Source: Patescibacteria group bacterium (GTDB lineage: Bacteria; Patescibacteriota; Microgenomatia; Levybacterales; UBA12049). From it: a stretch of 64,000 nt of DNA. Shown piece after piece: positions 3,021-35,735 of this stretch; position 1 is the first letter of the stretch, and every line of letters begins with the position of its first letter. The notes beneath the pieces are model-generated. The model was not told where the DNA came from. It did not search any database and worked only from the letters and a program-made list of their open reading frames with translations. The DNA lies in NCBI GenBank assembly GCA_038063415.1, contig JBBTVD010000006.1, positions 9,948 to 73,947 on the forward strand, written 5' to 3'. The position numbers were made by a program, and so were the translations under genes.

Positions 3021-4907
3021 TTATCGCCAATTATCTGTTAGAATAATCGTCTTATTTTTTGGTTCGTGTTTAAGTGGCTCAATTTTGCCTATATCAATAA
3101 CTACAGGAACATTTGCTAAAAGGCCTGCCAAAATACAAGTTCCTGTTGGTAAAATTGGCAAATACTCAAATGAGACTTTATCTAAATAAGAGATTGTTTG
3201 TTTTACGGCATTAATATCTTCATTGTTAATAAGTCGATGGAGAAAATAGTTATGTAATTGTGAGATAATCGTCGGTGAAATATCCGATGGTCTCTGGCTT
3301 GCAAGAGTAAGGAAGACTCCAAACTTTCGACCCTCTTTAATAATTTCTTCAAAGGTTTCCAGACGATAATCCTTCCATTGCTCACTTTCTCGTTCAGAGT
3401 TCTCTGAGAGAATATTGTGGGCTTCATCAATTATGATATTTAAATATTTTCGATCATCATTTTCTATCTTTTTGTCGTTGTACAATTTCTTGCACAAGAG
3501 TAAAGGAAGAATTTTCCTCATATGCATATTAACATCCTTTAACGACACAATAGTAATATTTTTCCTTCCATCAATTTCTTCAATCGTCCTAATTTCGATA
3601 ACTTTTTTTAGATCATCAATTCTTTTATCTAATCGTTTAATAAGAGGCGAAAGATGTTCCTTGTTAGAAAATCCTCGAATTATGTCATTATAGTATTGAA
3701 TTACAATTTGCAATCTTACTTCGTCTATAGGTGTAACTTGAGTAATATCAATCTGTAGTAGAGTGATTTTACTATCAATAAAATCTGTTCTAAAAGTAGC
3801 TTGATCACTAAAGGTTTTTATTCCGTTTTCTTGATAATAATACTTATTAACTCCGCTATGGAACTTAAGGTGTTCATTATAATCTTCCAAGAGTGTAGTA
3901 ATAGTTGCATTGCCACCTAGGCAGTCTATAAGTTCTTTTAGTAAATTGAAAATTATTGTTTTTTCAACGTTTCTATCACTCTCAGTCGTAGCTTCATATA
4001 TCATTTGTCCAATTAGATTTTTTAACTCAGCTTCTTCTCGTATTTTGGGAGCAAGATAGCTGTTATCTACTGAACGACGTAAAAAGGGCATTTGTGTTTT
4101 TTCGGTTGCTTCTAAAAATACCACCCAAAAATCTGAATCATTAAGGCTCTCTCTTGTAATCGGAAACTTATCTCCTCCAGTTGTGCGTGTGGAAAGCTGA
4201 TAAGTATTCTTATATTTTTTGTCTATAATGACATGATCTCGTCTGTTACCATTTACATATTCGCCATTAAAATCAATTAGAAAAAATTTAGCGTTTCTTT
4301 TGAATTTTCTTTTATCTTTATATTTCAAAAAAAGCTCACGATAAATTTTTGCGAGTGTATATGATTTACCACTACCTGTGTTACCAAAAATGCCGATATG
4401 GCTTGCCATAAGTCCATTAACTCCTACTCGTATCTCTTGACCTTTCTCAAATGATAATGTACCTATGGTTAAAGGATCGTCATTATCTCTTATAAAGTCG
4501 TGCACTTGTTCAAATTCTTTTTTATGAAGTAGAAAACATTCATTGTCGAGCAATGGAAGCTCCTTAATGCCACGTTCAAAATGCTTTCCTTTAAAAAAGC
4601 CCAGTAGGCTGAGACTTAAAACTCTATTAACTTTTTCTTTCTCATTACCATACCCTTGTTTTTTAATAAATTGCTTATCTTCATTTACAAACTCACCTTC
4701 AACCTTACCTATGATTATGGTAAATCCTTTTATGATTTTAATATAGCCGCCAACGGAAATATTTTTTAGAAGTTCGCCTTTATATACAAGATGTGAGGTG
4801 TTCTTTGTTTTATCCACCTTTACTTCTACTGTTCTACCTTTAACTGAGATGACTTTCCCAATTTTGAAAATAGAATCCTCAGATAATTGATCGTTTTTTA
4901 TAGGCAT
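3021..4907 (-). CDS. herA: HerA/FtsK-like ATPase (DUF87), the HerA partner of a SIR2-HerA defence pair
   Basis: 628 aa. Walker A GIFGNTGSGKSY, Walker B IIIDEAHN, sensor TLASQRPSDIS. N-terminal beta-barrel-like region. Starts 5 bp after the upstream SIR2 gene on the same strand. Confidence 0.8.
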   Translation of the reverse strand: MPIKNDQLSEDSIFKIGKVISVKGRTVEVKVDKTKNTSHLVYKGELLKNISVGGYIKIIKGFTIIIGKVEGEFVNEDKQFIKKQGYGNEKEKVNRVLSLSLLGFFKGKHFERGIKELPLLDNECFLLHKKEFEQVHDFIRDNDDPLTIGTLSFEKGQEIRVGVNGLMASHIGIFGNTGSGKSYTLAKIYRELFLKYKDKRKFKRNAKFFLIDFNGEYVNGNRRDHVIIDKKYKNTYQLSTRTTGGDKFPITRESLNDSDFWVVFLEATEKTQMPFLRRSVDNSYLAPKIREEAELKNLIGQMIYEATTESDRNVEKTIIFNLLKELIDCLGGNATITTLLEDYNEHLKFHSGVNKYYYQENGIKTFSDQATFRTDFIDSKITLLQIDITQVTPIDEVRLQIVIQYYNDIIRGFSNKEHLSPLIKRLDKRIDDLKKVIEIRTIEEIDGRKNITIVSLKDVNMHMRKILPLLLCKKLYNDKKIENDDRKYLNIIIDEAHNILSENSERESEQWKDYRLETFEEIIKEGRKFGVFLTLASQRPSDISPTIISQLHNYFLHRLINNEDINAVKQTISYLDKVSFEYLPILPTGTCILAGLLANVPVVIDIGKIEPLKHEPKNKTIILTDNWR

Positions 4908-4912
4908 ATATT

Positions 4913-6094
4913 TTACTCTTCTGCTTCAGGATTGTTGATTTTTTCTTCTGTTACAATATTCTCTACGTTTTCTTCTTCCAGTAAACATCCAAATATATTT
5001 TTATTGATTGTTGGAAAGTCATATTCGAATTTGTCAATTTTTGATCCGTCACCTGTTACTTCTTGTTCCGGGGCAATAATTTCAATATTATTATTTTTAA
5101 TATTATTCTTTCCAAATTTTTCTTCTATACCTATTTTTGCCTTTGAACTATGAGCAATAACATAAATCATAAGAGTAGGATTAGAATTAGCAGCTCTTAA
5201 CGTTATCTCTTTAAGATGCTCGTCTGCAAAGGAAAATCCCATTACAAAAAGAACAGTATTATCTTTTTCAAGTTCATTTGAGTATAAACGCAAGAGTTCA
5301 TAATATGTCTGGTTCATGAGTGTATGCTTGAATTTCTCCTTTGTAGGATTAACAACAATCAGCAGTTTTTCATAGGCTTCCATAAATGCGTCAGTAGAAG
5401 CATCAGTAGTTTTTCCGGTCGCAGCTGTTATTAGTTTTGCTATTGTCGCATCTTCAGGGATATCTATAATATGTGCCGGAGAAATTGTTTTGCTTGAAAC
5501 TTCTTTAACGTGTTTTAACTCACAAGAAAAGATAATATCATTTGGTGTAATTTCCCAAGATAATGATCCATGTAATTTTGAAAGGTTAAATACTGGAAGC
5601 TCTGCTGTATTATCATAATGTAAACTTTTCTTGAAATGCGATTTTTTAAAATTACTGAGGCTAAATTTGGGTTTAAATCGTCCATTAAAACCGTCGTTGT
5701 ATTCAAGATTAAGATCTTCCAAAGCTTTTTCTAAAAAAATATCAATATTTGTAGTAAAAAGGTTTACTTCTTTGCTGAGAAGGGTAACTTTGCGTTTAAG
5801 CAGAATAGAATTTAATATGTTGAGAAAATTACGATAGGTTTCTAGGACCTCTTGTGCAGTAACATCAGATTCAAGTATTTTTGGATTTTTAGAAATTACG
5901 TCATCAAAATATTTTTTATAAAGAGATGCTCGTATAAGTTTTTTTTTGCTAGCGCTCATATTTTGTTTTTCTTCAAGCTCCGTAAGTAATTTCTCAATAT
6001 TTCCGAGCGTTTTGAGATACGGCAAAGATAGACCTGATCCTATGAGAAAGTTTATATTACAATCTTGAATTATATTTTTAATTTTATCGTTCAT
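4913..6094 (-). CDS. SIR2-family (NAD-binding GxGxS) protein, the SIR2 partner of the SIR2-HerA pair
   Basis: 393 aa. N-terminal FLIGSGLS motif (SIR2 GAGxS-type dinucleotide-binding loop). Tightly coupled to the HerA-like gene downstream. Confidence 0.75.
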   Translation of the reverse strand: MNDKIKNIIQDCNINFLIGSGLSLPYLKTLGNIEKLLTELEEKQNMSASKKKLIRASLYKKYFDDVISKNPKILESDVTAQEVLETYRNFLNILNSILLKRKVTLLSKEVNLFTTNIDIFLEKALEDLNLEYNDGFNGRFKPKFSLSNFKKSHFKKSLHYDNTAELPVFNLSKLHGSLSWEITPNDIIFSCELKHVKEVSSKTISPAHIIDIPEDATIAKLITAATGKTTDASTDAFMEAYEKLLIVVNPTKEKFKHTLMNQTYYELLRLYSNELEKDNTVLFVMGFSFADEHLKEITLRAANSNPTLMIYVIAHSSKAKIGIEEKFGKNNIKNNNIEIIAPEQEVTGDGSKIDKFEYDFPTINKNIFGCLLEEENVENIVTEEKINNPEAEE

Positions 6095-7753: not shown

Positions 7754-9055
7754 ATGGAAAACAAAGTAAATAATCCAATTGTTGAATATTGTTTATATGC
7801 AAGAAAATCATCAGAAGATGACGAGCGTCAGGCAATGTCCATTGATTCCCAAATTAAAGAGATGAATGAGATGGCAGTAAAAGAAGGATTGTTTATTAAA
7901 GAAATCCGCAGAGAAAGTCACTCAGCAAAAATGTCAGGACAACGCCCGGTATTTATGAAAATCATAGAGGATCTTCGTTCAGGGCTCTTCTCAGGCATCC
8001 TCACATGGGCACCAGATCGCCTGAGTCGCAACGCAGGAGATTTAGGGATGCTTGTAGATCTTATGGATCAAGAGAGGCTTGTTCATATAAAAACTTTTAC
8101 TCAAGCATTTTCAAATACTCCTTCTGAAAAGTTTTTGCTCATGATTCTTTGCTCACAAGCTAAGCTAGAAAACGACCAGAAAGGCATAAATGTAAAACGA
8201 GGAATTCGTGCAAAATGCCAAATGGGCTGGAGACCAGGACCTCCTCCGATTGGATACTTTAATAGAGCATTTAATGGGATAAAAGATATTGTGATTGATC
8301 CAGAAAGAGCATCTTTTGTTACAGAAATGTTTGAACGGGTCGCAAAAAATGGAGATAGTGGCAGAACGATAAAGCGATGGCTTGATAGAGAAGGGATGAC
8401 AACAAGAGCAGGTAAAGGAGTAACGCTTAGCCAAATTTATATGATGCTAAAAAATCCTTTTTACTATGGAAAGTTTGAGTACCCTATTGGGGGTGGAAAT
8501 TGGTATGAAGGTAAACACACACCACTAGTTAGTAAAGAAACTTTTGATAAAGTGCAAAAACAGTTGATTACTTATCCAAAGTCAGCATGGGGTGGGAAAA
8601 TTATTGCCTTTAAAGGATTGTTTAAATGTGGAAACTGTGGCAGAAATATCGTAGGAGAAGAAAAATGGAGAAAACGGAAATGGGCAGAGCCAGTAAAACA
8701 TGTTTATTATCACTGCGCTCCTATCCTCAATCGTTGTACTGAGCCTTATATTAGTGAGGAAAAGTTGATAAAGCAGATTCTAAGATATATTAATTTTATG
8801 AACATTGCTCATCCAAAACACTTAAAATTAACAGAAACACTTAAATCAAGCATTTCTGCATATATGGCAATACGAGAAGAAGTTTTATATGAACAAGAAA
8901 TTAATCCTAATGATTCACCAATAAATGTAGTCGAATTTGCTGCGTATGTTTTCAGGAGTGGGTCAATAAGTGAAAAACGAGATTTAGTACTTGCGTTAGA
9001 TAGACAGCTTTATATTAAAAATCAATTTATTTCATCTTTAAATGAAAATACATAG
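7754..9055 (+). CDS. large serine recombinase (resolvase-domain integrase)
   Basis: 433 aa. N-terminal resolvase catalytic region YARKSSEDDERQAMSIDSQ with the catalytic Ser context. Later recombinase domain and zinc-ribbon cysteines (CGNCGR...HCAP). Strong paralog at 35728-37062. Confidence 0.85.
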   Translation: MENKVNNPIVEYCLYARKSSEDDERQAMSIDSQIKEMNEMAVKEGLFIKEIRRESHSAKMSGQRPVFMKIIEDLRSGLFSGILTWAPDRLSRNAGDLGMLVDLMDQERLVHIKTFTQAFSNTPSEKFLLMILCSQAKLENDQKGINVKRGIRAKCQMGWRPGPPPIGYFNRAFNGIKDIVIDPERASFVTEMFERVAKNGDSGRTIKRWLDREGMTTRAGKGVTLSQIYMMLKNPFYYGKFEYPIGGGNWYEGKHTPLVSKETFDKVQKQLITYPKSAWGGKIIAFKGLFKCGNCGRNIVGEEKWRKRKWAEPVKHVYYHCAPILNRCTEPYISEEKLIKQILRYINFMNIAHPKHLKLTETLKSSISAYMAIREEVLYEQEINPNDSPINVVEFAAYVFRSGSISEKRDLVLALDRQLYIKNQFISSLNENT

Positions 9056-15118: not shown

Positions 15119-15763
15119 ATGGCAAAAAAGACAAAACTAATGAGCATGCGAAAGCTGATCTATTTAGTACTATCTATAGTAATTCTTGGTCTTGGTGCTC
15201 TAGTTTGGTATAAAAACTGGCAAAGCAAGTTTGAAGCTCCTAGACAAAATACTCAATCAATTGGGTTTACTTTTAAGAAAGATACCTCCTTAACGGCAGT
15301 AGTTGGTGATCTTCACTATTACGGATTCATTAAAGATGAAGGTGCGTTTATATACGCATTAGCGCACACAAAAGATAATACTCCAGGCAAAGAGAGTGCT
15401 CTTACTATTGGGAGTAACACCATCAACCGAGAAGCTAGATATAAAATCTCTCAAAGTATGACTGCTTGGCAAATAGCGGACGTACTACTTAACCAAGGTG
15501 AACTTAGTACATGTGACCACGGCTGTCCTGATAGTAACTTTGATCCTGAACTTCTTCCGGGTGGCGATTTGGCACCCACTCTGAAAGAAAAGTACTCTGG
15601 GGTTAAAACCTACGAAGATTGCACCAAGGCGATTGGCCACGATGGCGGGCAACTTTCTTCAGAACAATATGCTCAGAGAACTGGAATTAGGAGATGTGTC
15701 GCTCCTGATGGGCGAGAATTTACTCAAGGGAAAGAAGGTTGGTCAGATGTCCCTACTCCTTAG
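15119..15763 (+). CDS. membrane-anchored hypothetical protein
   Basis: 214 aa with an N-terminal TM helix (LIYLVLSIVILGLGALVWY). Composition is more G+C-rich than neighbouring island genes. No recognisable catalytic motif. Confidence 0.5.
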   Translation: MAKKTKLMSMRKLIYLVLSIVILGLGALVWYKNWQSKFEAPRQNTQSIGFTFKKDTSLTAVVGDLHYYGFIKDEGAFIYALAHTKDNTPGKESALTIGSNTINREARYKISQSMTAWQIADVLLNQGELSTCDHGCPDSNFDPELLPGGDLAPTLKEKYSGVKTYEDCTKAIGHDGGQLSSEQYAQRTGIRRCVAPDGREFTQGKEGWSDVPTP

Positions 15764-16415
15764 GTGGTCGACCCCTTTTTACAGTAACTGTTCCTGGTAT
15801 ATTAGTTTGAGCTAGTTTGTGGCTAATCGCTCCTATATTTACGTCGTACGCCTCCAATCTAGGACTGTAGGACACAACACGAGCAATAGTATCAGGATGA
15901 TTGGAAACTTCTTGGACTGAAAATGCTTTTAAGTCAGTTTTCAAAGCCAATAGGTTATCTGTTACGGCTTGGTGATCAATTTCTAAATCCTTGCCAATAT
16001 GAATAAGAATCCAGTATCCTTCTGGTAACTGGAACTTACCCCCACGCTCACTTAATTTTTCTACCAATGATTTTTTAGGTAAACCAAGTTTGTTTCTACC
16101 ATAAAATGTCATTTCAATAGGAGCTATTTCTTGTGTTTCATCAGAGACTGGTCGCATTAGAAATGCATCAGGCGAATCATCAATATTATTCATTTGTACG
16201 AAGCATGAATGCTCTTGCATTGTATAGAAAGCTAAGCCAAAGATCGCCAAGTCGCGTAGTTCGCGAATCCTTTTATGCTTGCCGTTGTACTCAATCTCAT
16301 CATGACCAATGCCTGTGGCTTGTTTTTGATACTCAAAATAAGCCATATCAGGTCTTAGCCACACCTTATCGTGAGGAATCGTAAATTTTCTCGATGGTTT
16401 CTGCGCGTCTTTCAT
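15753..16415 (-). CDS. hypothetical protein, gene 4 of a four-gene operon
   Basis: 220 aa, no recognisable domain. Overlaps or abuts upstream genes on the same strand. Confidence 0.55.
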   Translation of the reverse strand: MKDAQKPSRKFTIPHDKVWLRPDMAYFEYQKQATGIGHDEIEYNGKHKRIRELRDLAIFGLAFYTMQEHSCFVQMNNIDDSPDAFLMRPVSDETQEIAPIEMTFYGRNKLGLPKKSLVEKLSERGGKFQLPEGYWILIHIGKDLEIDHQAVTDNLLALKTDLKAFSVQEVSNHPDTIARVVSYSPRLEAYDVNIGAISHKLAQTNIPGTVTVKRGRPPKE

Positions 16416-16423
16416 ATATTAAA

Positions 16424-17440
16424 TTAATCTTTGGACTTCTTGATTCCGACCCTCCCGAGTATAACAAAATATAAGTAGAGAACGAGGGTAGTATTTTGGA
16501 AATTACACTCCGCAGGAGCTATTTCACCATGAGCGATTTTATGTCTGAGCTTATATCCCATGGGCTCAAAGAGAACGAACTTAATTTGCCTACAGAAGTC
16601 TTCTCCAAATATTTTTATAAAATCTTCTGAATCAAAATCTCTTTCAGAAAGTACTTTCGTACGTGTGGCTGTATCGACTGTGGTATCTAAGGCGACAGTA
16701 CTAATGCCCAGTTGTTTGGCTATGCTTAATAAAAATGATTCAAACTGTGGAACTAAAATATGAAGAGCAGAAATATAATCCTCCTCATAATATTTTTTAA
16801 TACCAACAAGTACTATCTTAAGTTGATTGGGAGTAAACAATTCTGATTTAGAAAAATAATCAGATATTTCTTCAATGTTCATCATCTCTCCATAAGGGTT
16901 GCCATTTATTAGCATATACATTAATCGATTTAGACACAAAGTAACTATCTGTTTCAAACTTAAATCATACATTTGCATAAACCATGAGTATTCTGCTAAC
17001 GAGCCCCCACGCAAGTTGTGACCTTCGTCTGAAATAGTAGTTAATGTTGCAAACTGATAAGTGATTGGCATTGTTCTCTTAGCCAAAATATCCACATCTT
17101 TAACTTTGGGCATAAAATCAGGGTGCTGGCCAATAATCTTCAGTACTCGGTTTTTATCATCGATCTTGAGAATACCTACAATAAAGTTTTTAAGAGAATT
17201 ACTTTGTTCTTCGGTCAGATCATGTACAAACTCATGTTCTTGAAAATCCTTGCCAGACTCAATAGATTTTTTATTCATTTCCACAACCTTCGCCTTACAA
17301 AGTTTTATGGATACAGAGTCTTCAAGTTTTTTTGCCATTTCAAGCGCTTCCTTATATATAATCGCGGCACTAAAGAAACTTTCTGAATTTTCAGCTGTCT
17401 TTGCCTCCTCAATTTTTTTGTTAAGATCCGTTTTGTTCAT
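16424..17440 (-). CDS. hypothetical protein with a C-terminal HEPN-like (Abi_2-type R-x-x-I-A-H) motif
   Basis: 338 aa. C-terminal LRHKIAHGE fits the Rx4-6H HEPN signature and the Abi_2 (AbiD/AbiF) RxxxAH pattern. 4-bp overlap with the upstream gene. Confidence 0.55.
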   Translation of the reverse strand: MNKTDLNKKIEEAKTAENSESFFSAAIIYKEALEMAKKLEDSVSIKLCKAKVVEMNKKSIESGKDFQEHEFVHDLTEEQSNSLKNFIVGILKIDDKNRVLKIIGQHPDFMPKVKDVDILAKRTMPITYQFATLTTISDEGHNLRGGSLAEYSWFMQMYDLSLKQIVTLCLNRLMYMLINGNPYGEMMNIEEISDYFSKSELFTPNQLKIVLVGIKKYYEEDYISALHILVPQFESFLLSIAKQLGISTVALDTTVDTATRTKVLSERDFDSEDFIKIFGEDFCRQIKFVLFEPMGYKLRHKIAHGEIAPAECNFQNTTLVLYLYFVILGRVGIKKSKD

Positions 17441-18264
17441 TGTGATTTCCCAAAGTTAATCTGTTGCATCCACTCTTTTTGATTATGCGCTGACATAAAT
17501 GATGGATCTTGAGAAACCATAGCAAAAAGTATGGACATAACTGGTTTACTCTCTTTATCGTAAGGGAAAGTTAGTAAACAAATAAATCCCATTGATTCAG
17601 AAGAAATAGAAGAGCGAAGATCATCTGTAGCCTTCTTTAAATCGATACTCAAGTTTGTTTCACTTGAATATGGCATGACTAGAACACAATTAATGCTTGC
17701 GGGTTTTTGAAAGTACTTTTTATATATTTTAAGTCCTTCAGTAAGTTGATAATTAGGATTGCCTTTAACAGAAATCTTTGGGTTGATCATCAAAGATTTT
17801 AATTCTAACGGAATAGATATAGTCTCTTTAGCGGTGTTTTTTGGTAATCCAAGTAAAAAACCGTCCCAGCTACCTTTTCTGAAATGTGCTTTTACACCTA
17901 TTGTCTGATCAGGGAGTTGCCATGATGGAATTAACGTATAGTCAGTGCTATGTTTGCCTAATGTGTATGTCGTCTGGAGCACTCCTACCAAAATAGCTAG
18001 CTCGATTGCTCTCAAATCATTATCAAAGTCGAACTCGTTGAGAAGTTGGATATCCTTAGCTCTTTTCATGAGTACATTTTGCAAATGCTCAGTGTTAGAT
18101 AGCTGTTTGGAATTGCTGAGCAACTCTTGCTCGAAATACTTTTTTATTTGTCTGTAGAGATATTTGACATCATATGCGGCCTGAAAATTTATTGTTCCGT
18201 TGACCGTTTTGGCTAAAATATTTATGACCTTTGGTTTATCATTCTTCAAAACTGGACTTTCCAT
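17437..18264 (-). CDS. hypothetical protein, gene 2 of the operon
   Basis: 275 aa, no recognisable motif. Translationally coupled to the downstream gene. Confidence 0.55.
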   Translation of the reverse strand: MESPVLKNDKPKVINILAKTVNGTINFQAAYDVKYLYRQIKKYFEQELLSNSKQLSNTEHLQNVLMKRAKDIQLLNEFDFDNDLRAIELAILVGVLQTTYTLGKHSTDYTLIPSWQLPDQTIGVKAHFRKGSWDGFLLGLPKNTAKETISIPLELKSLMINPKISVKGNPNYQLTEGLKIYKKYFQKPASINCVLVMPYSSETNLSIDLKKATDDLRSSISSESMGFICLLTFPYDKESKPVMSILFAMVSQDPSFMSAHNQKEWMQQINFGKSQ

Positions 18265-18276
18265 AGTATTCTTGCA

Positions 18277-19953
18277 TTATAGTTCAATAGGTTTGCCATC
18301 TTTACCAACAATTGTTTCTCTAATTTTCTTATCTTTTCTTGGGTATTTCTTCAAAAACTCTTGATTCTCTGAAACCAGATAAATAGTGTAGTAAATCTGT
18401 CCTTTTTCATTCTTCAAGTCGCGACCTTTTAGCAACCCCTCTCTTTTTAATTTACCTCTTGTCGCAGGATGTACCCCAAAGTCTGATTCTATCTGCCAAT
18501 CTTGGAAGTAAATATTATCCTTGTCATATCTATGCTTTAGTGGAGGAATCACTCCTGATTTGATATTATTCCAGCAATTTCTGCACCACAAGCCATTTAG
18601 CGTCCACCAAATGTCTTTTCCATATGCTCCTTCACCACAAATTCCGCAAGAATACGGCCCTTTACCATCATCAAGGAAGAATCCTTCTGGCTCTTTCTCC
18701 AGCCTTCTTTTTCGTGTTGCTTCAATACCATCAAACTCTCCAGACATTTTTGCGAGCTGTACGAGATTATGGTTCGCATACTTAGCTCGCTTTTCTGGAT
18801 CTATTTTTGATTTAGAAGCTTTAACCTCTTTTTTAGCTCCTACCAACTCATGCAGATCTTCTTCTTGTTCGTACGCTTTCAGAGTGCCGGAGAGATATCC
18901 AATGCGGTAGCGTATCCCATCACTCATTAGTCTCCAATTGGTGTCTTCTAATGTGTCTTTCAGGAGCTTCTTGAGAGTTGCTTCACTTATATTAGGATTT
19001 CGTGTTGAATTAGCATCTAGAACATTAAAGGGAATCGTAACAAACCTTCCCATATCTGGTTTATCCAGCGTGAACTTAACATATTTTTCCTTCTCTAGTT
19101 TTTCAGTAAGCAGTTTCTCGACTTCAAGAACAGTTAACCTTTTTAGATTGACTGCCGTTTGGTAGGCTTTGTCATCGTATTTCTGTTTTTCTTCTTCATA
19201 TACCTCATGACCTACTTCCATGGCTTCAAGTGTTTCAACGTGTTCTATTCCATCCTTTTCATTTAAACAAAACTCTTCTCGATACTTCTCAAGAAGCTTT
19301 TTGCCTTCTTCGTCCTTACTCTTTTGCTCTTCCTTCCATTTTTTGTGTTCCTCATCATGTTTACCAAGATCCTCAATTTCAATTTTTGTATAACCACAGG
19401 CTTTGCATTTGTGTTTCCAAGTAATGATTTTGCCTTTTCGAGTAGCTATTATATCTATTTCTTCTTTGCACTTTGGACAAAGATCAGGTTTTGAAACGCG
19501 AATCTCACCATCGTCATATACCCACTGTTGTTTCTCGCAGTTACTGCATTTAAAAAGAAACATCATCCTTATGATTGGGCTGTCGTAAGTAGAGTCGAGA
19601 TGTTTTGTGATATTGAAATGCATCGGAGCATTACAGAGAGGACAGACAATACCTTCGGGAGTTGGAGTGTAATCTTGCTTATCTTGTTTTAACTTATCTT
19701 CTTCCATCCACTTCTGGATAGTTTCTTGCTTCTTCTCATACCTTTTGCCTTTTACAACAAGAAGCATTCGACTGAGCATGAGATTTACATCGTGTAACTT
19801 ATCTTCTTGGGAAATATCTTTTATTTCTTGGCTAGTTAGGCTTTTTTGATAAATATCCTGGAACATTTTTACCGTATCGAGGCATTCTTCAACGGTATGA
19901 AGATCGTAGCGATCTATATAGTGTTGCTCATCTTCCAGGTATTTCATTGGCAA
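18277..19953 (-). CDS. multi-zinc-ribbon hypothetical protein, first gene of the operon
   Basis: 558 aa with at least three CxxC...CxxC pairs (CPLC/CSNC, CPKC/CKAC, CGIC/CRNC) and charged coiled-coil-like linkers. No enzymatic motif recognised. Confidence 0.6.
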   Translation of the reverse strand: MPMKYLEDEQHYIDRYDLHTVEECLDTVKMFQDIYQKSLTSQEIKDISQEDKLHDVNLMLSRMLLVVKGKRYEKKQETIQKWMEEDKLKQDKQDYTPTPEGIVCPLCNAPMHFNITKHLDSTYDSPIIRMMFLFKCSNCEKQQWVYDDGEIRVSKPDLCPKCKEEIDIIATRKGKIITWKHKCKACGYTKIEIEDLGKHDEEHKKWKEEQKSKDEEGKKLLEKYREEFCLNEKDGIEHVETLEAMEVGHEVYEEEKQKYDDKAYQTAVNLKRLTVLEVEKLLTEKLEKEKYVKFTLDKPDMGRFVTIPFNVLDANSTRNPNISEATLKKLLKDTLEDTNWRLMSDGIRYRIGYLSGTLKAYEQEEDLHELVGAKKEVKASKSKIDPEKRAKYANHNLVQLAKMSGEFDGIEATRKRRLEKEPEGFFLDDGKGPYSCGICGEGAYGKDIWWTLNGLWCRNCWNNIKSGVIPPLKHRYDKDNIYFQDWQIESDFGVHPATRGKLKREGLLKGRDLKNEKGQIYYTIYLVSENQEFLKKYPRKDKKIRETIVGKDGKPIEL

Positions 19954-20195
19954 TAAAATCTCCAGAACTTATACACATAATCTAACACAAACGACCCTAT
20001 TTTTTAATGGTATTTCAACACGAATACCTGTTTTTTTAAAACCTTGTCAAGGGGTATTTTCATCAAACAATTCGAAAAAGTGAAATTCAGATTAGCCCAA
20101 TAAATCAAGCTATTCTCTATGTAACCCAGGTTGTCACCTAGCCCCCTCCTTGTCACGGGGGGTCAGCGAAATCGATGGTACATTTAGCTTAATCT

Positions 20196-21536
20196 ATGAA
20201 AAATATATCAATCCAAACAGTCGAAGTACCAATCAATGATTTAATCCCAGCTGATTACAATCCGCGCAAGCATGATGATATAGCAACAGAGCAACTCAAA
20301 CAAAGTATTACACGTTTCGGCCTTGTCGATCCAGTTATTGTCAACTCATCTCCAGATCGTAAGAACATTATTATTGGTGGGCACTTTAGATGGGAAGTAG
20401 CTAAAACACTTGAATATGAGACAGTCCCTGTAGTCTATGTCGATATTCCTGATCTTGAAAAAGAAAAGGAATTAAACCTTCGCCTCAATAAAAATACTGG
20501 TGAGTTTGATTGGGATCTACTCGCTAAATTTGATGAGTCATTTCTGACAGATGTTGGTTTCTCCAGTGGAGAACTTGATGGAATTTTTGATGTCGATGTA
20601 CCAGAAGAGTTTGACCTCGAAAAAGAACTTAAGAAATTAAATATCCAAAATATTAATACCCAAAAAGGTGATATATACGATTTGGACGGTAGCCGTCTTA
20701 TGTGTGGCGACTCAACAATAGAAGAAGACTTTCTAAAACTAATGAGTGGTGAGAAAGCGGACATGTGTATGACCGACCCACCATATATTTTGGACTACCT
20801 TCATGGCAAGAAAAAGCATGGCAAACCAATAACGGGCTTCGGTGCTAAAAGAGATAGAAGATATTTGGAAACAGACTCTCTCCCTCCTGATTTCACTGAA
20901 AAGTGGATGGGCAATATAAACAAGATTCAAAAAGAACATTTCAGCATTATTGTCTACGAAAACTGGAAAAACTTAAGGACTATCTGGGGTGAGATGGAAA
21001 AGTATTGGAAAGTGAAAAACATGATTGTCTGGCATCTGCCAAATAGACATCAGGGATTTTCAGCTAAATATAAATTCTTTTCCAAACATGATATCGCCAT
21101 GGTTGGTGCTTCTCCTGACAAAGATATTCCATTTAATCTCGAGGAGGAAATTGATGGACTCCAAGAAGAATATGAAACGGCTCTCTACGCCATCGCTGGA
21201 AAACCTCACTGGGAAGGCTACCAAAAAGGTAGGAAGAACCAACCAACTGATTTCATCGAATATGTGGCTTCAGACGAAAAACATTCCGGGCAAGGTGTGA
21301 TCTTTGGGACTAAACCAGTCGAGATTCTCATTCCCTATATAAAGATGCTCACAAAACGTGGAGATTTGGTTGTTGAGCCATTCTCGGGCAGTGGTAGCAC
21401 TCTCATTGCCTCGACCAAGATGAAGCGTCGTTGTTTCGGCATGGAAAAGTCTCCAGTATATGCGGAGGTCATCATCAAACGTTGGGAAAAGTTAACAGGC
21501 AAGAAACCCAAAAAAATATATGGACAAAACAATTGA
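20196..21536 (+). CDS. ParB-like nuclease domain fused to a DNA N6-adenine/N4-cytosine methyltransferase
   Basis: 446 aa. ParB N-terminal motifs (NPRKHD..., GGHFRWE). Methyltransferase motif IV DPPY (MTDPPYILDY) precedes motif I FSGSGST (beta-class order). Fusion typical of phages and plasmids. Confidence 0.8.
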   Translation: MKNISIQTVEVPINDLIPADYNPRKHDDIATEQLKQSITRFGLVDPVIVNSSPDRKNIIIGGHFRWEVAKTLEYETVPVVYVDIPDLEKEKELNLRLNKNTGEFDWDLLAKFDESFLTDVGFSSGELDGIFDVDVPEEFDLEKELKKLNIQNINTQKGDIYDLDGSRLMCGDSTIEEDFLKLMSGEKADMCMTDPPYILDYLHGKKKHGKPITGFGAKRDRRYLETDSLPPDFTEKWMGNINKIQKEHFSIIVYENWKNLRTIWGEMEKYWKVKNMIVWHLPNRHQGFSAKYKFFSKHDIAMVGASPDKDIPFNLEEEIDGLQEEYETALYAIAGKPHWEGYQKGRKNQPTDFIEYVASDEKHSGQGVIFGTKPVEILIPYIKMLTKRGDLVVEPFSGSGSTLIASTKMKRRCFGMEKSPVYAEVIIKRWEKLTGKKPKKIYGQNN

Positions 21537-21939
21537 AAAAAGACAGTCAAAAAATAAAGAACAATTGTTGGAGATATTAAAGAAGACTCCGATTGTTCAA
21601 ATCGCTTGCGAAAAAGCTGGAATTGGTCGAGCAACTTATTATCGTTGGAGAAAAGAAGATGCTGGATTTGCTCAGGTGAGCGATCAAGCACTTCTGGATG
21701 GAAACTTGCTTGTAAATGATATGGCAGAGAGCCAAATGATGAGTGCCATTAAAGACAAAAACATGACTGCTATCATATTTTGGCTTAAGCACCATCATCC
21801 TGCCTATGCAACCAAGATAGAAATCATGGCTTCAAATAAAAACCAAGACATAGTTCTTACCGACGAACAAAAAGAACTCTTAAACAAGGCATTAGAAATG
21901 GCGGCACTTATTCCGCCTCAAGAAAAAGATCATGAATGA
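21520..21939 (+). CDS. HTH protein, probably a terminase small subunit-like protein
   Basis: 139 aa. HTH IACEKAGIGRATYYRWRK. Overlaps the upstream gene and immediately precedes the large terminase. Confidence 0.5.
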   Translation: MDKTIEKRQSKNKEQLLEILKKTPIVQIACEKAGIGRATYYRWRKEDAGFAQVSDQALLDGNLLVNDMAESQMMSAIKDKNMTAIIFWLKHHHPAYATKIEIMASNKNQDIVLTDEQKELLNKALEMAALIPPQEKDHE

Positions 21940-23479
21940 ACAACAAAAGATAATTAAACAGATCCAAGAAAGTCCTGATTTTCGAAAAGCATTAACGCAG
22001 GAGAATTTTTATTGGTTCTTCACTACCTACTTTCCTCACTACATCACCTGTCCAACTGCTGATTTCCAAAAGGAAATCTTTAATCTTATCCAAAATGAGG
22101 AATTAGAAAAGATTTCTATTACCGCCTTTCGTGGCTCGGCTAAATCAACAATAGCAACCTTGGCACTACCTATCTGGGCAATGGTTGGTAAGCCAAGCAA
22201 GAAATATACCCTGCTTGTGAGTTTAACTCAGGGATTGGCAAAACAAATCCTTACCAATATAAAACAGGAACTTTCATCAAATGAACTGTTGATACGGGAT
22301 TTTGGACCATTCTCAGAAGTAGCCGATGAATGGCGATCCAATTCACTAGTGATCCCGCATTACAATGCTAGAGTTTCAGCTATATCTCAAAGCGAAAGAA
22401 TCAGAGGACTCAGGCATCGACAATACCGACCCGACCTTATTATCATCGATGATGTTGAGGACTTAGAATCAGTTAAGACGAGAGAAAGCAGAGATAATCT
22501 ATGGAACTGGTTTTCTGGTGAGATAAAGCCAATTGGAGATAGTGGCACTAGAATAATTACTGTAGGCAACCTGTTACATGAGGATTCGCTGATGATGCGA
22601 ATTAAGCAAAATATCCAAACAGGGGGAACGGGTGGTATTTATAAGGAATTTCCATTGTTAGACGATAACGGAAATATTGCTTGGCCTGGAAAGTTTCCAA
22701 CCATGGAACACATTGAAGCCAAAAGAAAAGAGATCGCTGATGAGTCAGCATGGTACCGAGAGTTCTTGTTAAAAATTATTGCTGACGAAGACCGAATTGT
22801 AAAAGGTTCTTGGATAAAATCCTACGACATTCTTCCTAGCTCTGATCGCTACCCAGCCAGACTTGTAGCAATTGGTGTTGACTTAGCTATTTCACTTTTG
22901 GAATGGGCGAACTTCACGGCCTTAGTTCCAGCGTATGTCGTGGGTTACGGTGACAATCTTCAAGTTTACATTTTGCCTTATATCTTAAACAAAAAATTAG
23001 ATTTCCCACAAACAATTCAGGCAATAAAAACACTGACCGAGCAACTTAAAGTAGGTTATAGACCATATCCTGTAGCTTACATAGAAAGTGTTGGCTATCA
23101 AAGTGCCGCAGCGCAACAACTGACAGTAGAACACGTACTTGCTGAGGAAGTGAGAATTCCACATATGGATAAGAGATCAAGACTATCCATAGTGTCTCCC
23201 CTTATTCAACAAGGGAAAGTATTTTTTCCAAGAACAGGTGCAGAAGTATTAATAGGTCAACTTGTAAATTTCGGTGTGGAGAAATACGATGATTTAGCGG
23301 ATGCTTTTACCTTGCTAATGGCAAAAGTCATAGAGTCAGACCGACCATCAAGCAGACGTAAACCGGGCGAAGTGTCTGCAACAGAACCTGATCCTCATCC
23401 TGGATTAACGTGGTCTTTGCAACACATGAATGATTTAGGATTTGATTTTGAACCAATTACACTTGATACGAAATTCTAA
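21932..23479 (+). CDS. terL: phage terminase large subunit
   Basis: 515 aa. Walker A-like AFRGSAKST, Walker B LIIIDDVED, C-terminal RNase-H-like nuclease region. Architecture of Terminase_6-type TerL. Confidence 0.8.
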   Translation: MNEQQKIIKQIQESPDFRKALTQENFYWFFTTYFPHYITCPTADFQKEIFNLIQNEELEKISITAFRGSAKSTIATLALPIWAMVGKPSKKYTLLVSLTQGLAKQILTNIKQELSSNELLIRDFGPFSEVADEWRSNSLVIPHYNARVSAISQSERIRGLRHRQYRPDLIIIDDVEDLESVKTRESRDNLWNWFSGEIKPIGDSGTRIITVGNLLHEDSLMMRIKQNIQTGGTGGIYKEFPLLDDNGNIAWPGKFPTMEHIEAKRKEIADESAWYREFLLKIIADEDRIVKGSWIKSYDILPSSDRYPARLVAIGVDLAISLLEWANFTALVPAYVVGYGDNLQVYILPYILNKKLDFPQTIQAIKTLTEQLKVGYRPYPVAYIESVGYQSAAAQQLTVEHVLAEEVRIPHMDKRSRLSIVSPLIQQGKVFFPRTGAEVLIGQLVNFGVEKYDDLADAFTLLMAKVIESDRPSSRRKPGEVSATEPDPHPGLTWSLQHMNDLGFDFEPITLDTKF

Positions 23480-27204: not shown

Positions 27205-28050
27205 ATGGCAAATTTAAGTAGCGTTGATAAGGTTAAAATTGAAAGACTTTTCGGAATGGGAAGTGGTTATGTGTTGGATTTTTCTAACCGCTCACTTCAG
27301 GACTTTATTTTAACCTGCTGCAAAAAAGATATTTTTAATGATAGATATAATCAAGGGTCTGGGTCAAAAGCCAATCGGTTAAGAGCTTTTTGGGATGCCG
27401 AATTAGATAGTGTTGTTGGGAAAGTCTTAACTGAAATGTTGGAGTATTGGAGAACACAAAAAGCATATTCTGATACTGGTATTCCTAAGGGGGAAGAGAC
27501 ACTATACAAAGATTGTTTAGTTATCGCACAAAGATTATCTGGTAAGACTACTAAAACAGAAGTCACTGAGGAAGAATTTCTACAAAAAGAATATAAAATT
27601 ATTTCTGTATCTGCATTAAATATAGATGGAAATGTCGGCGATGTAGTTAAACAAAGAATCAAAGAAATTGATATATGTATGAAGGCAAAAGCACCCCTTG
27701 CCTCAATTTTTCTGGCGGGAAGCACCCTAGAAGGAATACTTTTAAGCACCGCTATTAGCAATCCAAAAGTTTTTAACCAGTCCACATCTGCACCTAAAGA
27801 TAAAGAAGGAAAGGTTTTAAAGTTGAATGAATGGAAATTAAGTCAGTTAATTGATGTCGCCTGCGAAATTGGCTATTTGGATTTAGATATTAAAAAATTT
27901 AGCCACTCACTGAGAGATTTTCGTAACTATATTCATCCTTATGAACAAGCTTTAGCTGGATTTAACCCAGATGATGATACTGCTCAGATATGCTGGCAGG
28001 TATTAAAGGCTGCCATATCAGATTTAGGCAAAAAACAAACAACACTATGA
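27205..28050 (+). CDS. hypothetical protein embedded between hsdS and hsdR (possible HEPN-like motif)
   Basis: 281 aa. C-terminal [13 protein letters not shown] loosely fits Rx4-6H(xY). Contains AQRLSGKTT, a possible degenerate P-loop. Position is analogous to prrC-type genes inserted in hsd loci. Stop overlaps the hsdR start (ATGA). Confidence 0.55.
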
Positions 28051-31247: not shown

Positions 31248-34010
31248 ATGAATGATGAAAAAATACTCATTAAACAATTCTTTCAAAATTTCCTTGTAAA
31301 AGAAAAGGGTAAAGACAATATTAGTAATGAATATGTTGCCTTCTTAAAAATTCTGTGGAACGGTCTCGATGATTTAATATCTAAAAATAAAATTGCTCGA
31401 AAGATTTACATATTAGAACATATTGAAAAATATCTTATTGAAGATACTTTTCGAACTCAAATAGATTTAAGCGAACTGCCAATTGCCAGTGAACTTGCTG
31501 CATCTCAAGATACAAACACACCTGAGATCACACTTAAAGATATTGATCTAGTCAACTTCCGAGGTTTTAGAGCTAATACTAATGGGAGCGGAAGAAAAAT
31601 TAGATTTCACGAAAAAGTGACTTTAATTTTTGCTCCAAATGGTGGAGGAAAAACTAGTCTATGTGAAAGTATTGAATGGGCACTTACCGGCGACACTTAC
31701 GAACATACAAAAAGAAAAACAGATTCAACACTTAATTATTTTCAAAATCGAAGTAATGCAGATCCGACATATCAAAACACTAAGCTTTCGTTTTTAAACA
31801 ATCAACCTACTGTTCCCAATTTAATTTTTGATCGATGTCTTCTAGAAAAAAATCGAATAGACAAATTTGCGAAACTTGCAATGCAGCCTAATAAAGATCT
31901 GCAAGAAATTCTTGGGGAGTTGTTTGGATTTTCTGATGTTGTAGATTTTTTTAAAGAGTTTGGCCAAGATCTTTCACCCACAGATAACGAAAAAGGTCGC
32001 CCAGGAAGAGAAAACTGGCAGACATGGTTAGAGTGGAGCAATAAAAAAAGTGAACTAGAAAAAATATTAGACGAATCAAAAAAAGAAGAGAAAAAAGCTA
32101 GTGAGGATTTGGAGAAACTCACAGGAGAAAAGAGTTTTGATGACAAAAAAGTTGAGATTGAAGAAAAAGGGAAAGAACTCCGCATCAAGCTTGAGAGCCT
32201 TGAGAAAAATTCTAGCAAGCAATTTTCTACAAAATCTTTTCAAGACAAGATAACTTTACATAAAGATAAAATCGAGCAGTGGAAAAAACTTGATAAGGAT
32301 ATATCTGATAATGCTAAGGATCTTGATTTTGAAAGCCTTTTCCAAGCAGCTAATAATATTTTCAAAAATAATTACAGTGATAATAAATGTCCGCTTTGCG
32401 ATACTCCTATTGAACAGAAACCAGAGAATCCCAATCATGTTTGTGTAGTTACTAGTCCTCAACTAAAGACAGAACAAGAATTGAAGAAACTTAAAAAGCT
32501 AACCGATTGGAAAGTTGAAAGGAATAAACTTGAAATAGATTTAAAAGGTACTTGCTTTAGAGAAATAAGGGACGATTGGCAAAAGATACAACATAATTTA
32601 ATAGATGAAAATTGGAAAGACATCGCGGGCGAAACTGAAAAACCATTAATTCCAGATGTCAATCTTATTGAGATTGAATCTAAGCTTGATGGGAATACAA
32701 ACTCATTTATTGACGCATATGAACTTATATTAGGTAAGGATTTCACTGCATTGGCTGAGTTAGAGGGAAAAGTAACATCTTACAAAAATTTGAAGGATGA
32801 GTTATTGAAAGATAAGCCACAGAAAGAAATTGAGATTCAAAATCTACGTGATGAATTTGCCAAACTACAGGAACAAAAAAATATACTTTCTGCAAAACAG
32901 CAAATCACAAAAAGTAGCGATGAAAGATTGAAAAAGATCCTAAATCAATCCAGCAATTCAGATTTATTTAAAAAGATGTTGGACGTTTATCCAGATTTTT
33001 ATAATGATCTGCAAAATTTTCAATCTGGTTCGATCTTATCTGAAGGTGCTGATATTGATGACTATGTAACGGGCTTTTACCGAGCTTTGAACTTACATGA
33101 TAACGTTGGCGAGATAATAAAAGAAATTAAATTCCCCAAAGGACTTCAAGAAGATTTTTGTTTAATATTTGAAAGCAATAATACCTGTAATGCCCTAGAT
33201 ATCCTCAGCGAAGGGCACTTAAAGACTCTTGGTCTTGCTGCTCTACTTGCCAGAGCAGCTAAGTACAATACGTCCCTGCTTGTCTTTGATGATGCTATCA
33301 ACGCTATCGATTCTGACCATAGAGATAACATTGCTTGTTTATTATCAGGAAGTTTCTCTGACGAAGAAGGAGTTAGTTCATTTGGAGAAAAGTGGGATCA
33401 AATAAAACAATATATAAAAGTATGCCAATTTGTAATAACGTCCCATGACCGCTTCTTTGATGAAAAAATCGCCAATCTATTTTCTAAGGACGAACAATTA
33501 AGATATGTTTTATATTGTGGAGCTGAAGGAGTTGATTTTTGTGAAAAAGGTAATCCAGCCAACTTTGAAGCTAAAGTCGAAGGCTTTTTAAACCCAGATA
33601 CTCAGGATGTTCGCTCAGCAATATTTTATTGTCGTATCTGGTTAGAAGAAATACTTATGGACATCGCAGCAAATTTTAAAAAGCCAAGTAATGGTAAACA
33701 AATCGATTTTTCCAATACTATTGATAAAAAGTCTCGCAAATTAAAAAATCCTGAATTGGCAACTGTAATTCGTAGCTTGGTTTCAAATTTGAAAGTAAAT
33801 GAGGCTTCAGATGATGAAAAAATAACAGCTGGCATTTTAGACCAGATTTATCAAGAAAAGGAAGGAAAGTATATTTGGTTTTTCGAGATCTTGAATCAAG
33901 AAAGTCATTATCGTCGACTTGATCACGTAGATATCTCTAATGCTCCAACAAGTAATGAAGTTCAAGCAATCTTTAATAAGATTCAAGAGATACAAACTCT
34001 CAATACTTAA
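31248..34010 (+). CDS. Rad50/SbcC/SMC-like ABC ATPase with a central CxxC zinc-hook-like motif
   Basis: 920 aa. N-terminal Walker A FAPNGGGKTSLCESIEWAL (RecF/SMC type). Central KCPLCDTPIE inside a predicted coiled-coil. C-terminal signature LSEGHLKTLGLAALLA and Walker B/D-loop LLVFDDAINAIDSDH. Confidence 0.75.
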   Translation: MNDEKILIKQFFQNFLVKEKGKDNISNEYVAFLKILWNGLDDLISKNKIARKIYILEHIEKYLIEDTFRTQIDLSELPIASELAASQDTNTPEITLKDIDLVNFRGFRANTNGSGRKIRFHEKVTLIFAPNGGGKTSLCESIEWALTGDTYEHTKRKTDSTLNYFQNRSNADPTYQNTKLSFLNNQPTVPNLIFDRCLLEKNRIDKFAKLAMQPNKDLQEILGELFGFSDVVDFFKEFGQDLSPTDNEKGRPGRENWQTWLEWSNKKSELEKILDESKKEEKKASEDLEKLTGEKSFDDKKVEIEEKGKELRIKLESLEKNSSKQFSTKSFQDKITLHKDKIEQWKKLDKDISDNAKDLDFESLFQAANNIFKNNYSDNKCPLCDTPIEQKPENPNHVCVVTSPQLKTEQELKKLKKLTDWKVERNKLEIDLKGTCFREIRDDWQKIQHNLIDENWKDIAGETEKPLIPDVNLIEIESKLDGNTNSFIDAYELILGKDFTALAELEGKVTSYKNLKDELLKDKPQKEIEIQNLRDEFAKLQEQKNILSAKQQITKSSDERLKKILNQSSNSDLFKKMLDVYPDFYNDLQNFQSGSILSEGADIDDYVTGFYRALNLHDNVGEIIKEIKFPKGLQEDFCLIFESNNTCNALDILSEGHLKTLGLAALLARAAKYNTSLLVFDDAINAIDSDHRDNIACLLSGSFSDEEGVSSFGEKWDQIKQYIKVCQFVITSHDRFFDEKIANLFSKDEQLRYVLYCGAEGVDFCEKGNPANFEAKVEGFLNPDTQDVRSAIFYCRIWLEEILMDIAANFKKPSNGKQIDFSNTIDKKSRKLKNPELATVIRSLVSNLKVNEASDDEKITAGILDQIYQEKEGKYIWFFEILNQESHYRRLDHVDISNAPTSNEVQAIFNKIQEIQTLNT

Positions 34011-34012
34011 TC

Positions 34013-34768
34013 ATGTCCAAATACTACAATCCAAATCGCACAAGAAATCTATATAACGCAAACTCTTCAGAATTATTTCGTTTAAGTCGTTCTAAGATTG
34101 ATCTTTTCTTAAATTGTCCTCGTTGTTTTTACCTTGATCGTCGATTAGGAGTGGGTCAACCACCTGGATATCCATTTTCTCTCAATTCTGCTGTAGATAA
34201 GCTTCTAAAGAAAGAATTTGATACATACAGAGCCAATAAGACGTCACATCCATTAATGAAAACGTACGGTATCGATGCCGTTCCACTTGCTCATGAAAAA
34301 ATCGATGAATGGAGAGATTCATTGCGGGCAGGTATAACTTTCAAAATTAATGATGAAAATGTTGTCATAACTGGTGGCGTAGACGACGTGTGGGTAACTC
34401 CAGAAGGTGAATTCATCATTGTGGACTACAAAGCGACTTCTAAAGACGCTGAGGTAACGCTCGATGCAGACTGGCAAATCGGTTACAAACGGCAGATGGA
34501 GATATATCAGTGGTTATTCCGTCAAAACGGCTTTAAGGTTTCTCCTGTAGGTTACTTTGTGTATTGTAATGGCGATACCGACCCAGCGGCATTCGACGGG
34601 AAACTGGAGTTTGATATAAAAGTAATTCCTTATGAAGGCAATACCGATTGGGTTGAACGAACGATTTTAGATGCAATCAAATGCCTCAAGGCAGATGAAA
34701 TGCCTGATCCAGGCGAAGATTGCGATTTTTGCAAGTACCGTCAGGCCGTACGACAATTTGAGAAATAA
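34013..34768 (+). CDS. Cas4/RecB-like PD-(D/E)xK nuclease with cysteine pairs compatible with an Fe-S cluster
   Basis: 251 aa. GGVDDVW...EGEFIIVDYK (D/ExK), QMEIYQW (QxxxY motif), N-terminal CPRC and C-terminal CDFC. Starts 3 bp after the SMC-like gene. Confidence 0.75.
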   Translation: MSKYYNPNRTRNLYNANSSELFRLSRSKIDLFLNCPRCFYLDRRLGVGQPPGYPFSLNSAVDKLLKKEFDTYRANKTSHPLMKTYGIDAVPLAHEKIDEWRDSLRAGITFKINDENVVITGGVDDVWVTPEGEFIIVDYKATSKDAEVTLDADWQIGYKRQMEIYQWLFRQNGFKVSPVGYFVYCNGDTDPAAFDGKLEFDIKVIPYEGNTDWVERTILDAIKCLKADEMPDPGEDCDFCKYRQAVRQFEK

Positions 34769-35699: not shown

Positions 35700-35735
35700 C
35701 TGGACTTCTCGAGAGGTTCCCGGTACCTTGACCAC
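35700..35735. repeat. CTGGACTTC...CCGGTACCTTG motif, copy 3 of 3, immediately upstream of or overlapping the recombinase B start
   Basis: ctggacttctcgagaggttcccggtaccttgacc. Confidence 0.4.

Follow-up and report, generated by a model that had tools for sequence, protein, structure and literature searches.

A four-gene block in a Patescibacteria defence island reads as a conserved zinc-ribbon anchor gene with independent HEPN and nuclease cargo

Introduction

Defence hotspots of P2/P4 prophages and satellites are among the closest described counterparts of the locus reported here, as are the phage-inducible chromosomal islands (PICIs) and capsid-forming PICIs, which are phage satellites. The core defence hotspots of Pseudomonas are flanked by core genes (PMC10250203), and defence islands marked by recombinases have been described (PMC13552941). 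Hotspots of E. coli and Pseudomonas have already been mined by guilt by association; little has been mapped of the anti-phage immunity of Patescibacteria (the Candidate Phyla Radiation, CPR), which are difficult to cultivate. Here we analysed a block of four minus-strand genes, called A to D, in a 64,000-nucleotide stretch of a Patescibacteria group bacterium (assembly GCA_038063415.1, contig JBBTVD010000006.1, positions 9,948 to 73,947); this whole stretch is called the window.

An earlier note on this DNA, made from the sequence alone, had taken the block for a four-gene operon typical of a phage-defence or abortive-infection module. We favour another reading, to which we give a probability of about 0.7, namely that the block is a composite of a conserved backbone gene, A, and the independent cargo genes B, C and D. 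The apparent four-gene system would then be a chance juxtaposition of cargo.

Results

Among the loci compared, the four genes occur together in the window only

The block consists of the following genes, given with their positions in the window.

18277..19947, minus strand: gene A after correction of its start, 556 amino acids (aa), multi-zinc-ribbon protein; putative backbone and anchor gene of the element
17437..18264, minus strand: gene B, 275 aa, predicted PD-(D/E)xK nuclease of a very rare family; putative cargo
16424..17440, minus strand: gene C, 338 aa, DUF4209 (C6orf70) HEPN protein by sequence match; putative cargo, recurring more than any other unit of the block
15753..16415, minus strand: gene D, 220 aa, PD-(D/E)xK-fold protein; putative promiscuous cargo or accessory, sometimes paired with C

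All four open reading frames (ORFs) were present exactly where they had been reported. The ORF of A had been given as 18277-19953 (558 aa); it stands, and its start was moved to the ATG at 19947 (556 aa) because all A homologues begin with MxYL. The spacing is 12 bp between A and B and 8 bp between C and D, with a 4-bp overlap of B and C. The block is not interrupted by any signal resembling a promoter or terminator that exceeds shuffle expectation, and a scan of it with Rfam gave zero matches. None of the four genes is a chance ORF, since each has homologues elsewhere. Searches of A, B and D against Pfam, NCBIfam, PHROGs and PADLOC returned no family at a meaningful E-value, and sequence and profile searches of the Protein Data Bank (PDB) with all four proteins returned noise only, including a match of A to POP6 (E=0.012). 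The statement that these proteins lack recognisable enzymatic domains holds for A, whose structural model matches no enzymatic fold; it is true of the hidden Markov model (HMM) libraries only for B, which has an invariant PD-(D/E)xK signature, and for D, which has a PD-(D/E)xK fold. A housekeeping role was rejected, as every gene of the block sits in variable, element-type contexts.

We then compared the gene neighbourhoods. Loci of A (n=36, window included) came from contig look-ups, a genome scan and a metagenome scan made with C; the window proteins were searched against the loci and all ORFs were clustered, using a simple ORF caller and BLASTP at 1e-5. Loci other than the window are numbered with the prefix L. 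Among 36 A loci, 27 C loci, five B loci and about 10 D contexts, the A-B-C-D set was unique to the window. The claim of one conserved operon and system fell on this result, since the neighbourhood is not conserved, which the earlier note itself had named as the outcome that would tell against it. C, with or without D, is the only recurrent unit of the block.

Gene A lies at a hotspot of exchanged defence genes

The immediate neighbours of A in its 36 loci belong to 29 different families downstream and 26 upstream, and are mostly co-oriented with A and tightly spaced (gaps of -59 to about 20 bp). Known systems and candidates among them are Shedu (SduA, 1.6e-80; L018), PDC-S53 (E=0; L030), AbiV (L036), PDC-S37/Hhe (9e-133; L006) and Dsr1, split into a SIR2 part and a 957-aa part (4e-126; L005); NACHT (L039), a KAP NTPase with an SNase (L003), DUF4238 (L001) and DUF5677 (L009) were also found beside A. 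Shedu, Dsr1, AbiV and Hhe are known to work autonomously. As for the cargo of the window, C follows A directly in L019, L058 and L068 (the first two being possibly one and the same sequence) and with one gene between in L021, that is, in four of the 35 other loci. B is absent from the other A loci except L039, where A is followed by a 1345-aa NACHT-type protein and then by B, and D is absent save for a 27%-identical relative fused to HTH_17 in L005.

The far end of the cargo slot is set by a gene that converges on the block.

15119..15763, plus strand: convergent gene for a membrane-anchored protein of 214 aa; distal boundary of the cargo slot, its 3' end overlapping D by 11 bp

L031 is an empty site of the hotspot. 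There, the homologue of the 15119-15763 gene (67% identical) shares the same 11 bp (AAGGAGTAG) with a short A-type gene, and no B, C or D lies between the two. The overlap is at 15753-15763 in the window and at 10443-10453 in L031, and the identical AAGGAGTAG ends D in the former and the short A-type gene in the latter. From this identity it follows that the cargo junction lies within about 10 bp of the stop of the 15119-15763 gene and that an inserted gene takes its last codons from the flank.

The features that characterise a hotspot were all found at A: the anchor is conserved, its neighbours vary and known defence systems are among them, and one site is empty. Because its neighbours vary and its linkage to backbone genes recurs (see below), we regard A as the defence-hotspot anchor of an integrative element. 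Its main significance is probably positional, as the flank of a hotspot with exchange of defence genes on either side of A. The slot between A and the convergent 15119-15763 gene would hold interchangeable cargo, probably co-transcribed with A.

Some of the same observations would suit a functional role of A as the shared partner of its variable neighbours, acting as a DNA-binding sensor, transcriptional activator or adaptor in a modular family of A plus a variable effector. A is co-oriented with its upstream and downstream neighbours and often overlaps them, it is much more conserved than they are, and where only its C-terminal zinc-ribbon module remains, this module has the same position and the same types of cargo (L032 compared with L001, and L034 with L008). 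However, many of the neighbours are autonomous (Shedu, Dsr1, AbiV, Hhe), B, C and D are found without A in most of their loci, and a backbone of terminase, recombinase and methyltransferase genes fits an element core gene. We consider such a partnership unlikely.

A is a multi-zinc-ribbon protein with a separable C-terminal module

Searches with A gave 504 homologues, with about 500 of full length at 45-89% identity; the best 120 are all full length, at 50-100% identity, and the top match is a protein from a Patescibacteria metagenome-assembled genome (MAG). Judged by record titles, the family is largely confined to Patescibacteria, an assignment with which some of the MAG titles of the loci (Gammaproteobacteria, Pseudomonadales, Methanobacterium, Omnitrophota) conflict. 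The repeated CxxC zinc ribbons noticed earlier in A were borne out by an alignment of 17 divergent homologues (51-86% identity), in which six CxxC pairs make up three ribbons with all twelve Cys invariant: C102/C105 with C134/C137, C157/C160 with C181/C184, and C434/C437 with C455/C458. Two regions of the gene can be delimited.

19396..19644, minus strand: two N-terminal zinc ribbons of A (C102/C105/C134/C137 and C157/C160/C181/C184), the eight Cys invariant in the 17 homologues
18328..18726, minus strand: C-terminal module of A, about residues 408-540, with the third zinc ribbon and a small helix/strand domain

The AlphaFold (AF2) model of A has a predicted local distance difference test score (pLDDT) of 82 and a predicted template modelling score (pTM) of 0.59. 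It begins with a helical hairpin, followed by two zinc-ribbon beta units, a long coiled coil, a small ferredoxin-like alpha/beta domain and, at the C-terminus, the third zinc ribbon with the helix/strand domain. The N-terminal ribbons gave a sub-threshold match to Zn_ribbon_IS1595 and appear in the model as beta-strand ribbons at residues 108-193. A had no match among 50,697 phage records and was found on one IMG/VR contig, another island of the same kind without structural genes; for these reasons A does not look like a typical phage gene. Its three zinc ribbons and separable C-terminal module suggest that A probably binds nucleic acid, for which DNA would be the candidate.

Stand-alone proteins of 142-197 aa that correspond to the C-terminal zinc-ribbon module only (about residues 408-540) were found in L030-L036, for instance at 9863-10453 in L031 and at 7063-7629 in L030. 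These short forms hold the same hotspot position as long A, with the same cargo families (L001/L032, L008/L034). An excisionase-type winged helix-turn-helix identity of the module was considered; only one short form gave a match, which is non-significant (E=0.041) and is kept as a lead.

A belongs to a recurrent backbone with terminase and recombinase genes

The genes around the block were annotated across the window.

19948..20195: intergenic region between A and the divergent ParB-methyltransferase gene, with only weak consensus promoter matches
20196-21536, plus strand: ParB-N6/N4 methyltransferase (Pfam ParB_N and N6_N4_Mtase; phrog_498)
21520-21939, plus strand: small terminase TerS (phrog_4044 and others)
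21932-23479, plus strand: large terminase TerL (phrog_38, E=1e-76)
35728-37062, plus strand: large serine recombinase at the right element end (Pfam Resolvase, Recombinase, Zn_ribbon_recom)
37244-37317, minus strand: tRNA-Gln (ARAGORN), adjoining the right serine recombinase
7754-9055: second large serine recombinase, a paralogue of the first
3021-6094: SIR2-HerA, a complete defence system of the neighbouring element (PADLOC HerA E=4e-175, SIR2 3e-63)
1466-2971: DUF2779/Cas4-like gene next to SIR2-HerA, of a family that recurs in 12 A loci

That the block lies in an integrative defence island was well founded: two serine recombinases, the tRNA-Gln, a Hhe/PDC-S37-like helicase, SIR2, SIR2-HerA and a Type I restriction-modification (R-M) system, which stands on the other side of A, make up its surroundings. 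The helicase is an SF1 protein of 1522 aa (PDC-S37, 4e-43; Hhe, 2e-17), and the window also holds a SIR2_2 protein. The ParB-methyltransferase had been counted among the flanking defence systems, and this has to be revised: it is the first gene of a phage-type ParB-methyltransferase/TerS/TerL module, hence of the element backbone, and the TerS/TerL pair had been missing from the earlier account of the island. The region 19948-20195 presumably holds divergent promoters for A and this module. The two recombinase genes share 73-75% DNA identity over about 540 nt at a distance of 28 kb, which points to a tandem arrangement of two elements. The search for attachment (att) sites gave neither a copy of the tRNA-Gln end nor direct repeats at the flanks, as expected for serine recombinases.

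The backbone genes recur across the 36 A loci, with the ParB-methyltransferase in 16, the DUF2779/Cas4-like nuclease in 12, an XRE-type helix-turn-helix (HTH) gene in 12, a LexA-like S24 repressor in 10, TerS in nine, TerL in seven and the serine recombinase in seven. The trio of ParB-methyltransferase, TerS and TerL is divergent from A in at least nine other loci, TerL is full length throughout at 38-50% identity, and in several loci the serine recombinase lies only one to three genes past TerL. The element, which in the window would span about 9.06-37.1 kb, would run from the large serine recombinase to TerL, TerS and the ParB-methyltransferase, divergent from A. No capsid, portal or tail gene was found among the annotated ORFs of at least 110 aa at 9-37 kb of the window. 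The identity of a prophage was rejected, the terminase being without structural genes alongside, and the backbone could be a capsid-less, terminase-encoding, satellite-like element of Patescibacteria. Proximity of the trio to a large serine recombinase was seen in the window and in L001, L006, L009, L015, L016, L020, L021, L025, L027 and L055.

Taken further, A and this backbone (serine recombinase, TerL, TerS and ParB-methyltransferase) might define an undescribed class of such capsid-less elements, with A as an active DNA-binding regulator or adaptor that controls the adjacent cargo or works with it. We hold this extension to be speculative and rather improbable.

Two further observations concern the region between A and the right recombinase. 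At 31248-34768, between the Type I R-M system and the recombinase, the gene for a 920-aa AAA_23/SMC-like ATPase (weak LmuB match, 5e-15) stands before that for a 251-aa Cas4-like PD-(D/E)xK nuclease; the two may make up a defence candidate, and they fill a second cargo slot, between the serine recombinase and TerL. At 27205-28050, a 281-aa ORF without a family match lies between hsdS and hsdR and overlaps the start of hsdR.

The cargo genes are found with changing partners

The Rx4H motif seen earlier at the C-terminus of C is a genuine HEPN motif; its assignment to Abi_2 did not hold.

16529..16546, minus strand: HEPN Rx4H motif R299-H-K-I-A-H304 of C

The stretch RHKIAHG corresponds to residues 299-305, of which R299, H300, K301, A303, H304 and G305 are invariant in 23 full-length homologues (46-65% identity). 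C matched Pfam DUF4209 (PF13910) with 25.2 bits (cut-off 22.3; E=1.8e-5) over residues 269-325. This was the sole Pfam family at E<=1, so that membership of Abi_2 (AbiD/AbiF) was rejected. C also matched phrog_5183 and, in PADLOC, PDC-S39 (E=7e-16), with residues 197-328 on positions 468-593 of the 615-position model; full-length membership of PDC-S39 was rejected, as only the C-terminal 126-130 positions of about 600-615 are matched. The N-terminal 190 residues had no relative in the libraries searched. By these matches C is a DUF4209/C6orf70-type HEPN protein. DUF4209 is the C6orf70 family of the HEPN superfamily and has been found in operons related to R-M (Anantharaman et al. 2013, PMC3710099).

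The metagenome scan added 25 loci with C, and full-length homologues are present in 27 loci, mostly with unrelated neighbours. In L044, L045, L051, L052, L055 and L060, C stands beside a divergent methyltransferase, which is the hotspot position held by A in the window. We also observed a 182-184-aa P-loop kinase-like gene (weak dNK/AAA_17 matches) upstream of C in L021 (11596-12150) and L047, where the window has B. A 338-341-aa family with another Rx4H HEPN-like motif, YKLRNS(I/V)VHG, recurs convergent to C or near A (L021, 13160-14176; L001, 13506-14531; L062) and has no Pfam or PADLOC match.

D has about 110 homologues and a restriction-endonuclease-like PD-(D/E)xK fold. E52, D83 and E101-x-T103 are invariant, with ExT instead of ExK in all homologues; because of this replacement its catalysis is uncertain, and the invariant K48 and K127 could substitute for the motif Lys. 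D adjoins C in five of about 17 C loci with readable flanks (about 30%), a co-occurrence far above chance for two rare families. The order is C then D in the window, L047 and L063, and D then C in L051 and L052; given the two orders, the link appears real but facultative. D stands without C in five contexts. It precedes a 1439-aa protein in L041, comes behind one of 1255 aa in L072 and is alone in L070. In L042 two small genes follow it, in a tract of genes for ribosomal proteins and other housekeeping functions, and in L043 it is followed by an MmeI-type R-M system, which is accompanied by a helicase and a T5orf172 gene.

D could be one of a class of leader genes that head defence operons. 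D-like domains fused to, or preceded by, small HTH_17 (excisionase/MerR-type) genes were observed at the head of diverse defence-like operons (L005, 5232-6125; L041, 7634-7867; L042, 7750-7938). In L038 (6849-7943) a 299-aa HNH-type protein takes the place equivalent to that of D, before a homologous protein of about 1420 aa.

B is far rarer. A search of 5.8 billion clusters gave six homologues, and a profile search of 1.84 billion proteins gave 25 representatives; all members of the family are single-domain proteins of 250-300 aa. An alignment of 19 sequences, reaching down to 20% identity, has Q62, R85, D134, G135, E154, K156 and S157 as invariant residues; E88 is shared by at least 90% of the sequences.

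17797..17865, minus strand: catalytic-type signature of B, S-W-D134-G followed by E154-L-K156-S, in invariant alignment columns

As E, D and ExK follow one another in the right order, B is predicted to be a PD-(D/E)xK nuclease, independent of the other genes of the block. Its sequence had no match in PDB. A match to AbiEii (E=0.008) was set aside because it covers a helical N-terminal stretch only. Alignment of B with D by hhalign placed SWDG/ELK on SPDA/IEMT with a probability of only 8.5%; the motifs are in register, and at this probability the two are not claimed as paralogues. The five contexts of B, the window included, all differ, and none of the other four has C or D: B follows the NACHT-type protein in L039, a trio of 943, 206 and 354 aa in L037 and RadC in L040, and in L038 it stands beside an operon of HTH_17, HNH and 1417-aa proteins.

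B, C and D are likely hotspot cargo with an abortive-infection or nuclease role. It has to be asked whether the genes might serve the element instead, with A as a recombination-directionality factor or late regulator, D as an XisH-like excision factor, B as a homing or recombination nuclease and C as an addiction toxin. D does give a match to XisH and a short form of A one to an excisionase; the former is one of many generic PD-(D/E)xK matches and the latter is non-significant, and the conserved parts of the backbone do not include B, C or D, so that we find this doubtful. Nor is it at all probable that B, C and D entered the hotspot as one cassette of nuclease, HEPN and nuclease-like genes. 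All three do lie between the conserved flanks A and the 15119-15763 gene, with the 4-bp overlap of B and C and 8 bp between C and D, but B is never beside C or D in its four other contexts, and the unrelated gene upstream of C in L021 and L047 encodes a 184-aa P-loop kinase-like protein.

Weighing the composite reading

Several points weigh against a composite of anchor and independent cargo. The four genes of the window are packed as tightly as those of a true operon, and A is often translationally coupled to its neighbours by overlaps of 4-59 bp, which fits a functional partnership too. D is without the canonical Lys of ExK and may be non-catalytic. The loci sampled are modest in number (31 from genomes, 25 from metagenomes and a few from look-ups), and clustering by BLASTP at 1e-5 could miss very distant B-like or D-like partners.

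The weakest of the alternatives, a new defence or abortive-infection system made of all four genes with A as zinc-ribbon sensor and nuclease and HEPN effectors, is backed by the same-strand packing (12, -4 and 8 bp), the lack of an internal promoter or terminator signal and the defence-island context, but we judge it highly improbable because the combination was found nowhere else in 35 other A loci, 25 C loci, four B loci and five D contexts, and each gene occurs with unrelated partners.

Discussion

Our data are consistent with A and its backbone forming the stable part of an integrative element whose cargo slot was filled, in the window, by B, C and D. On this composite reading, C would act as an abortive-infection-type HEPN RNase activated by stress or infection, usually alone, as the single-gene candidate PDC-S39 would. 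D would be a facultative DNA-binding or nuclease accessory, perhaps a DNA sensor, a binder or a second effector; it also accompanies unrelated large defence-like proteins. B would be an independent nuclease that elsewhere follows other proteins, such as the NACHT-type NTPase.

A false four-gene system is thereby kept out of the catalogues, and C, with or without D, is the only part of the block worth testing as a recurrent unit. With its roughly 500 homologues and varied defence neighbours, A offers a handle for guilt-by-association mining of CPR defence systems. Should A prove to be a regulator in a new class of element, these homologues would mark a large reservoir of new CPR defence genes, among them the nuclease families of B and of D and the short HEPN protein of DUF4209 type.

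Compared with known systems, C shares with PDC-S39 and other DUF4209 HEPN proteins the DUF4209 region and the invariant Rx4H motif; it differs in having 338 aa where the models have about 600-615 positions and in matching at the C-terminus only. No experimental support for PDC-S39 was found in the literature. With Abi_2 proteins (AbiD/AbiF), C has in common an Rx4H near the C-terminus, a length of about 340 aa and a defence-island setting, but its significant match is to DUF4209. Unlike restriction endonucleases, CdiA-CT toxins and Hachiman HamA, which are PD-(D/E)xK nucleases, neither B nor D is matched by an HMM family; in D, ExT takes the place of ExK, and the family of B amounts to 25 representatives in 1.84 billion proteins.

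The element resembles PICIs in being integrative and in carrying TerS/TerL, repressor-like genes (XRE, LexA-like) and defence cargo, whereas its recombinase is a large serine recombinase, it encodes the two terminase subunits without capsid or portal genes, and it is not known to have a helper phage. Like known hotspots, the site combines one conserved gene at its flank with neighbours that vary greatly and are mostly of defence type, and an empty site exists (L031); Shedu, Dsr1, Hhe-like, AbiV and R-M genes alternate at one position next to A. Unlike them, it is anchored by an uncharacterised 556-aa zinc-ribbon protein, largely of Patescibacteria by record titles, with cargo on both sides of A that is often translationally coupled and a backbone of TerS and TerL without capsid genes. 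Defence hotspots of mobile elements that carry HEPN and nuclease cargo are well known as a kind of feature; as far as our literature searches show, the anchor A, the families of B and of D, the short HEPN protein of DUF4209 type and the terminase backbone lacking capsid genes are undescribed.

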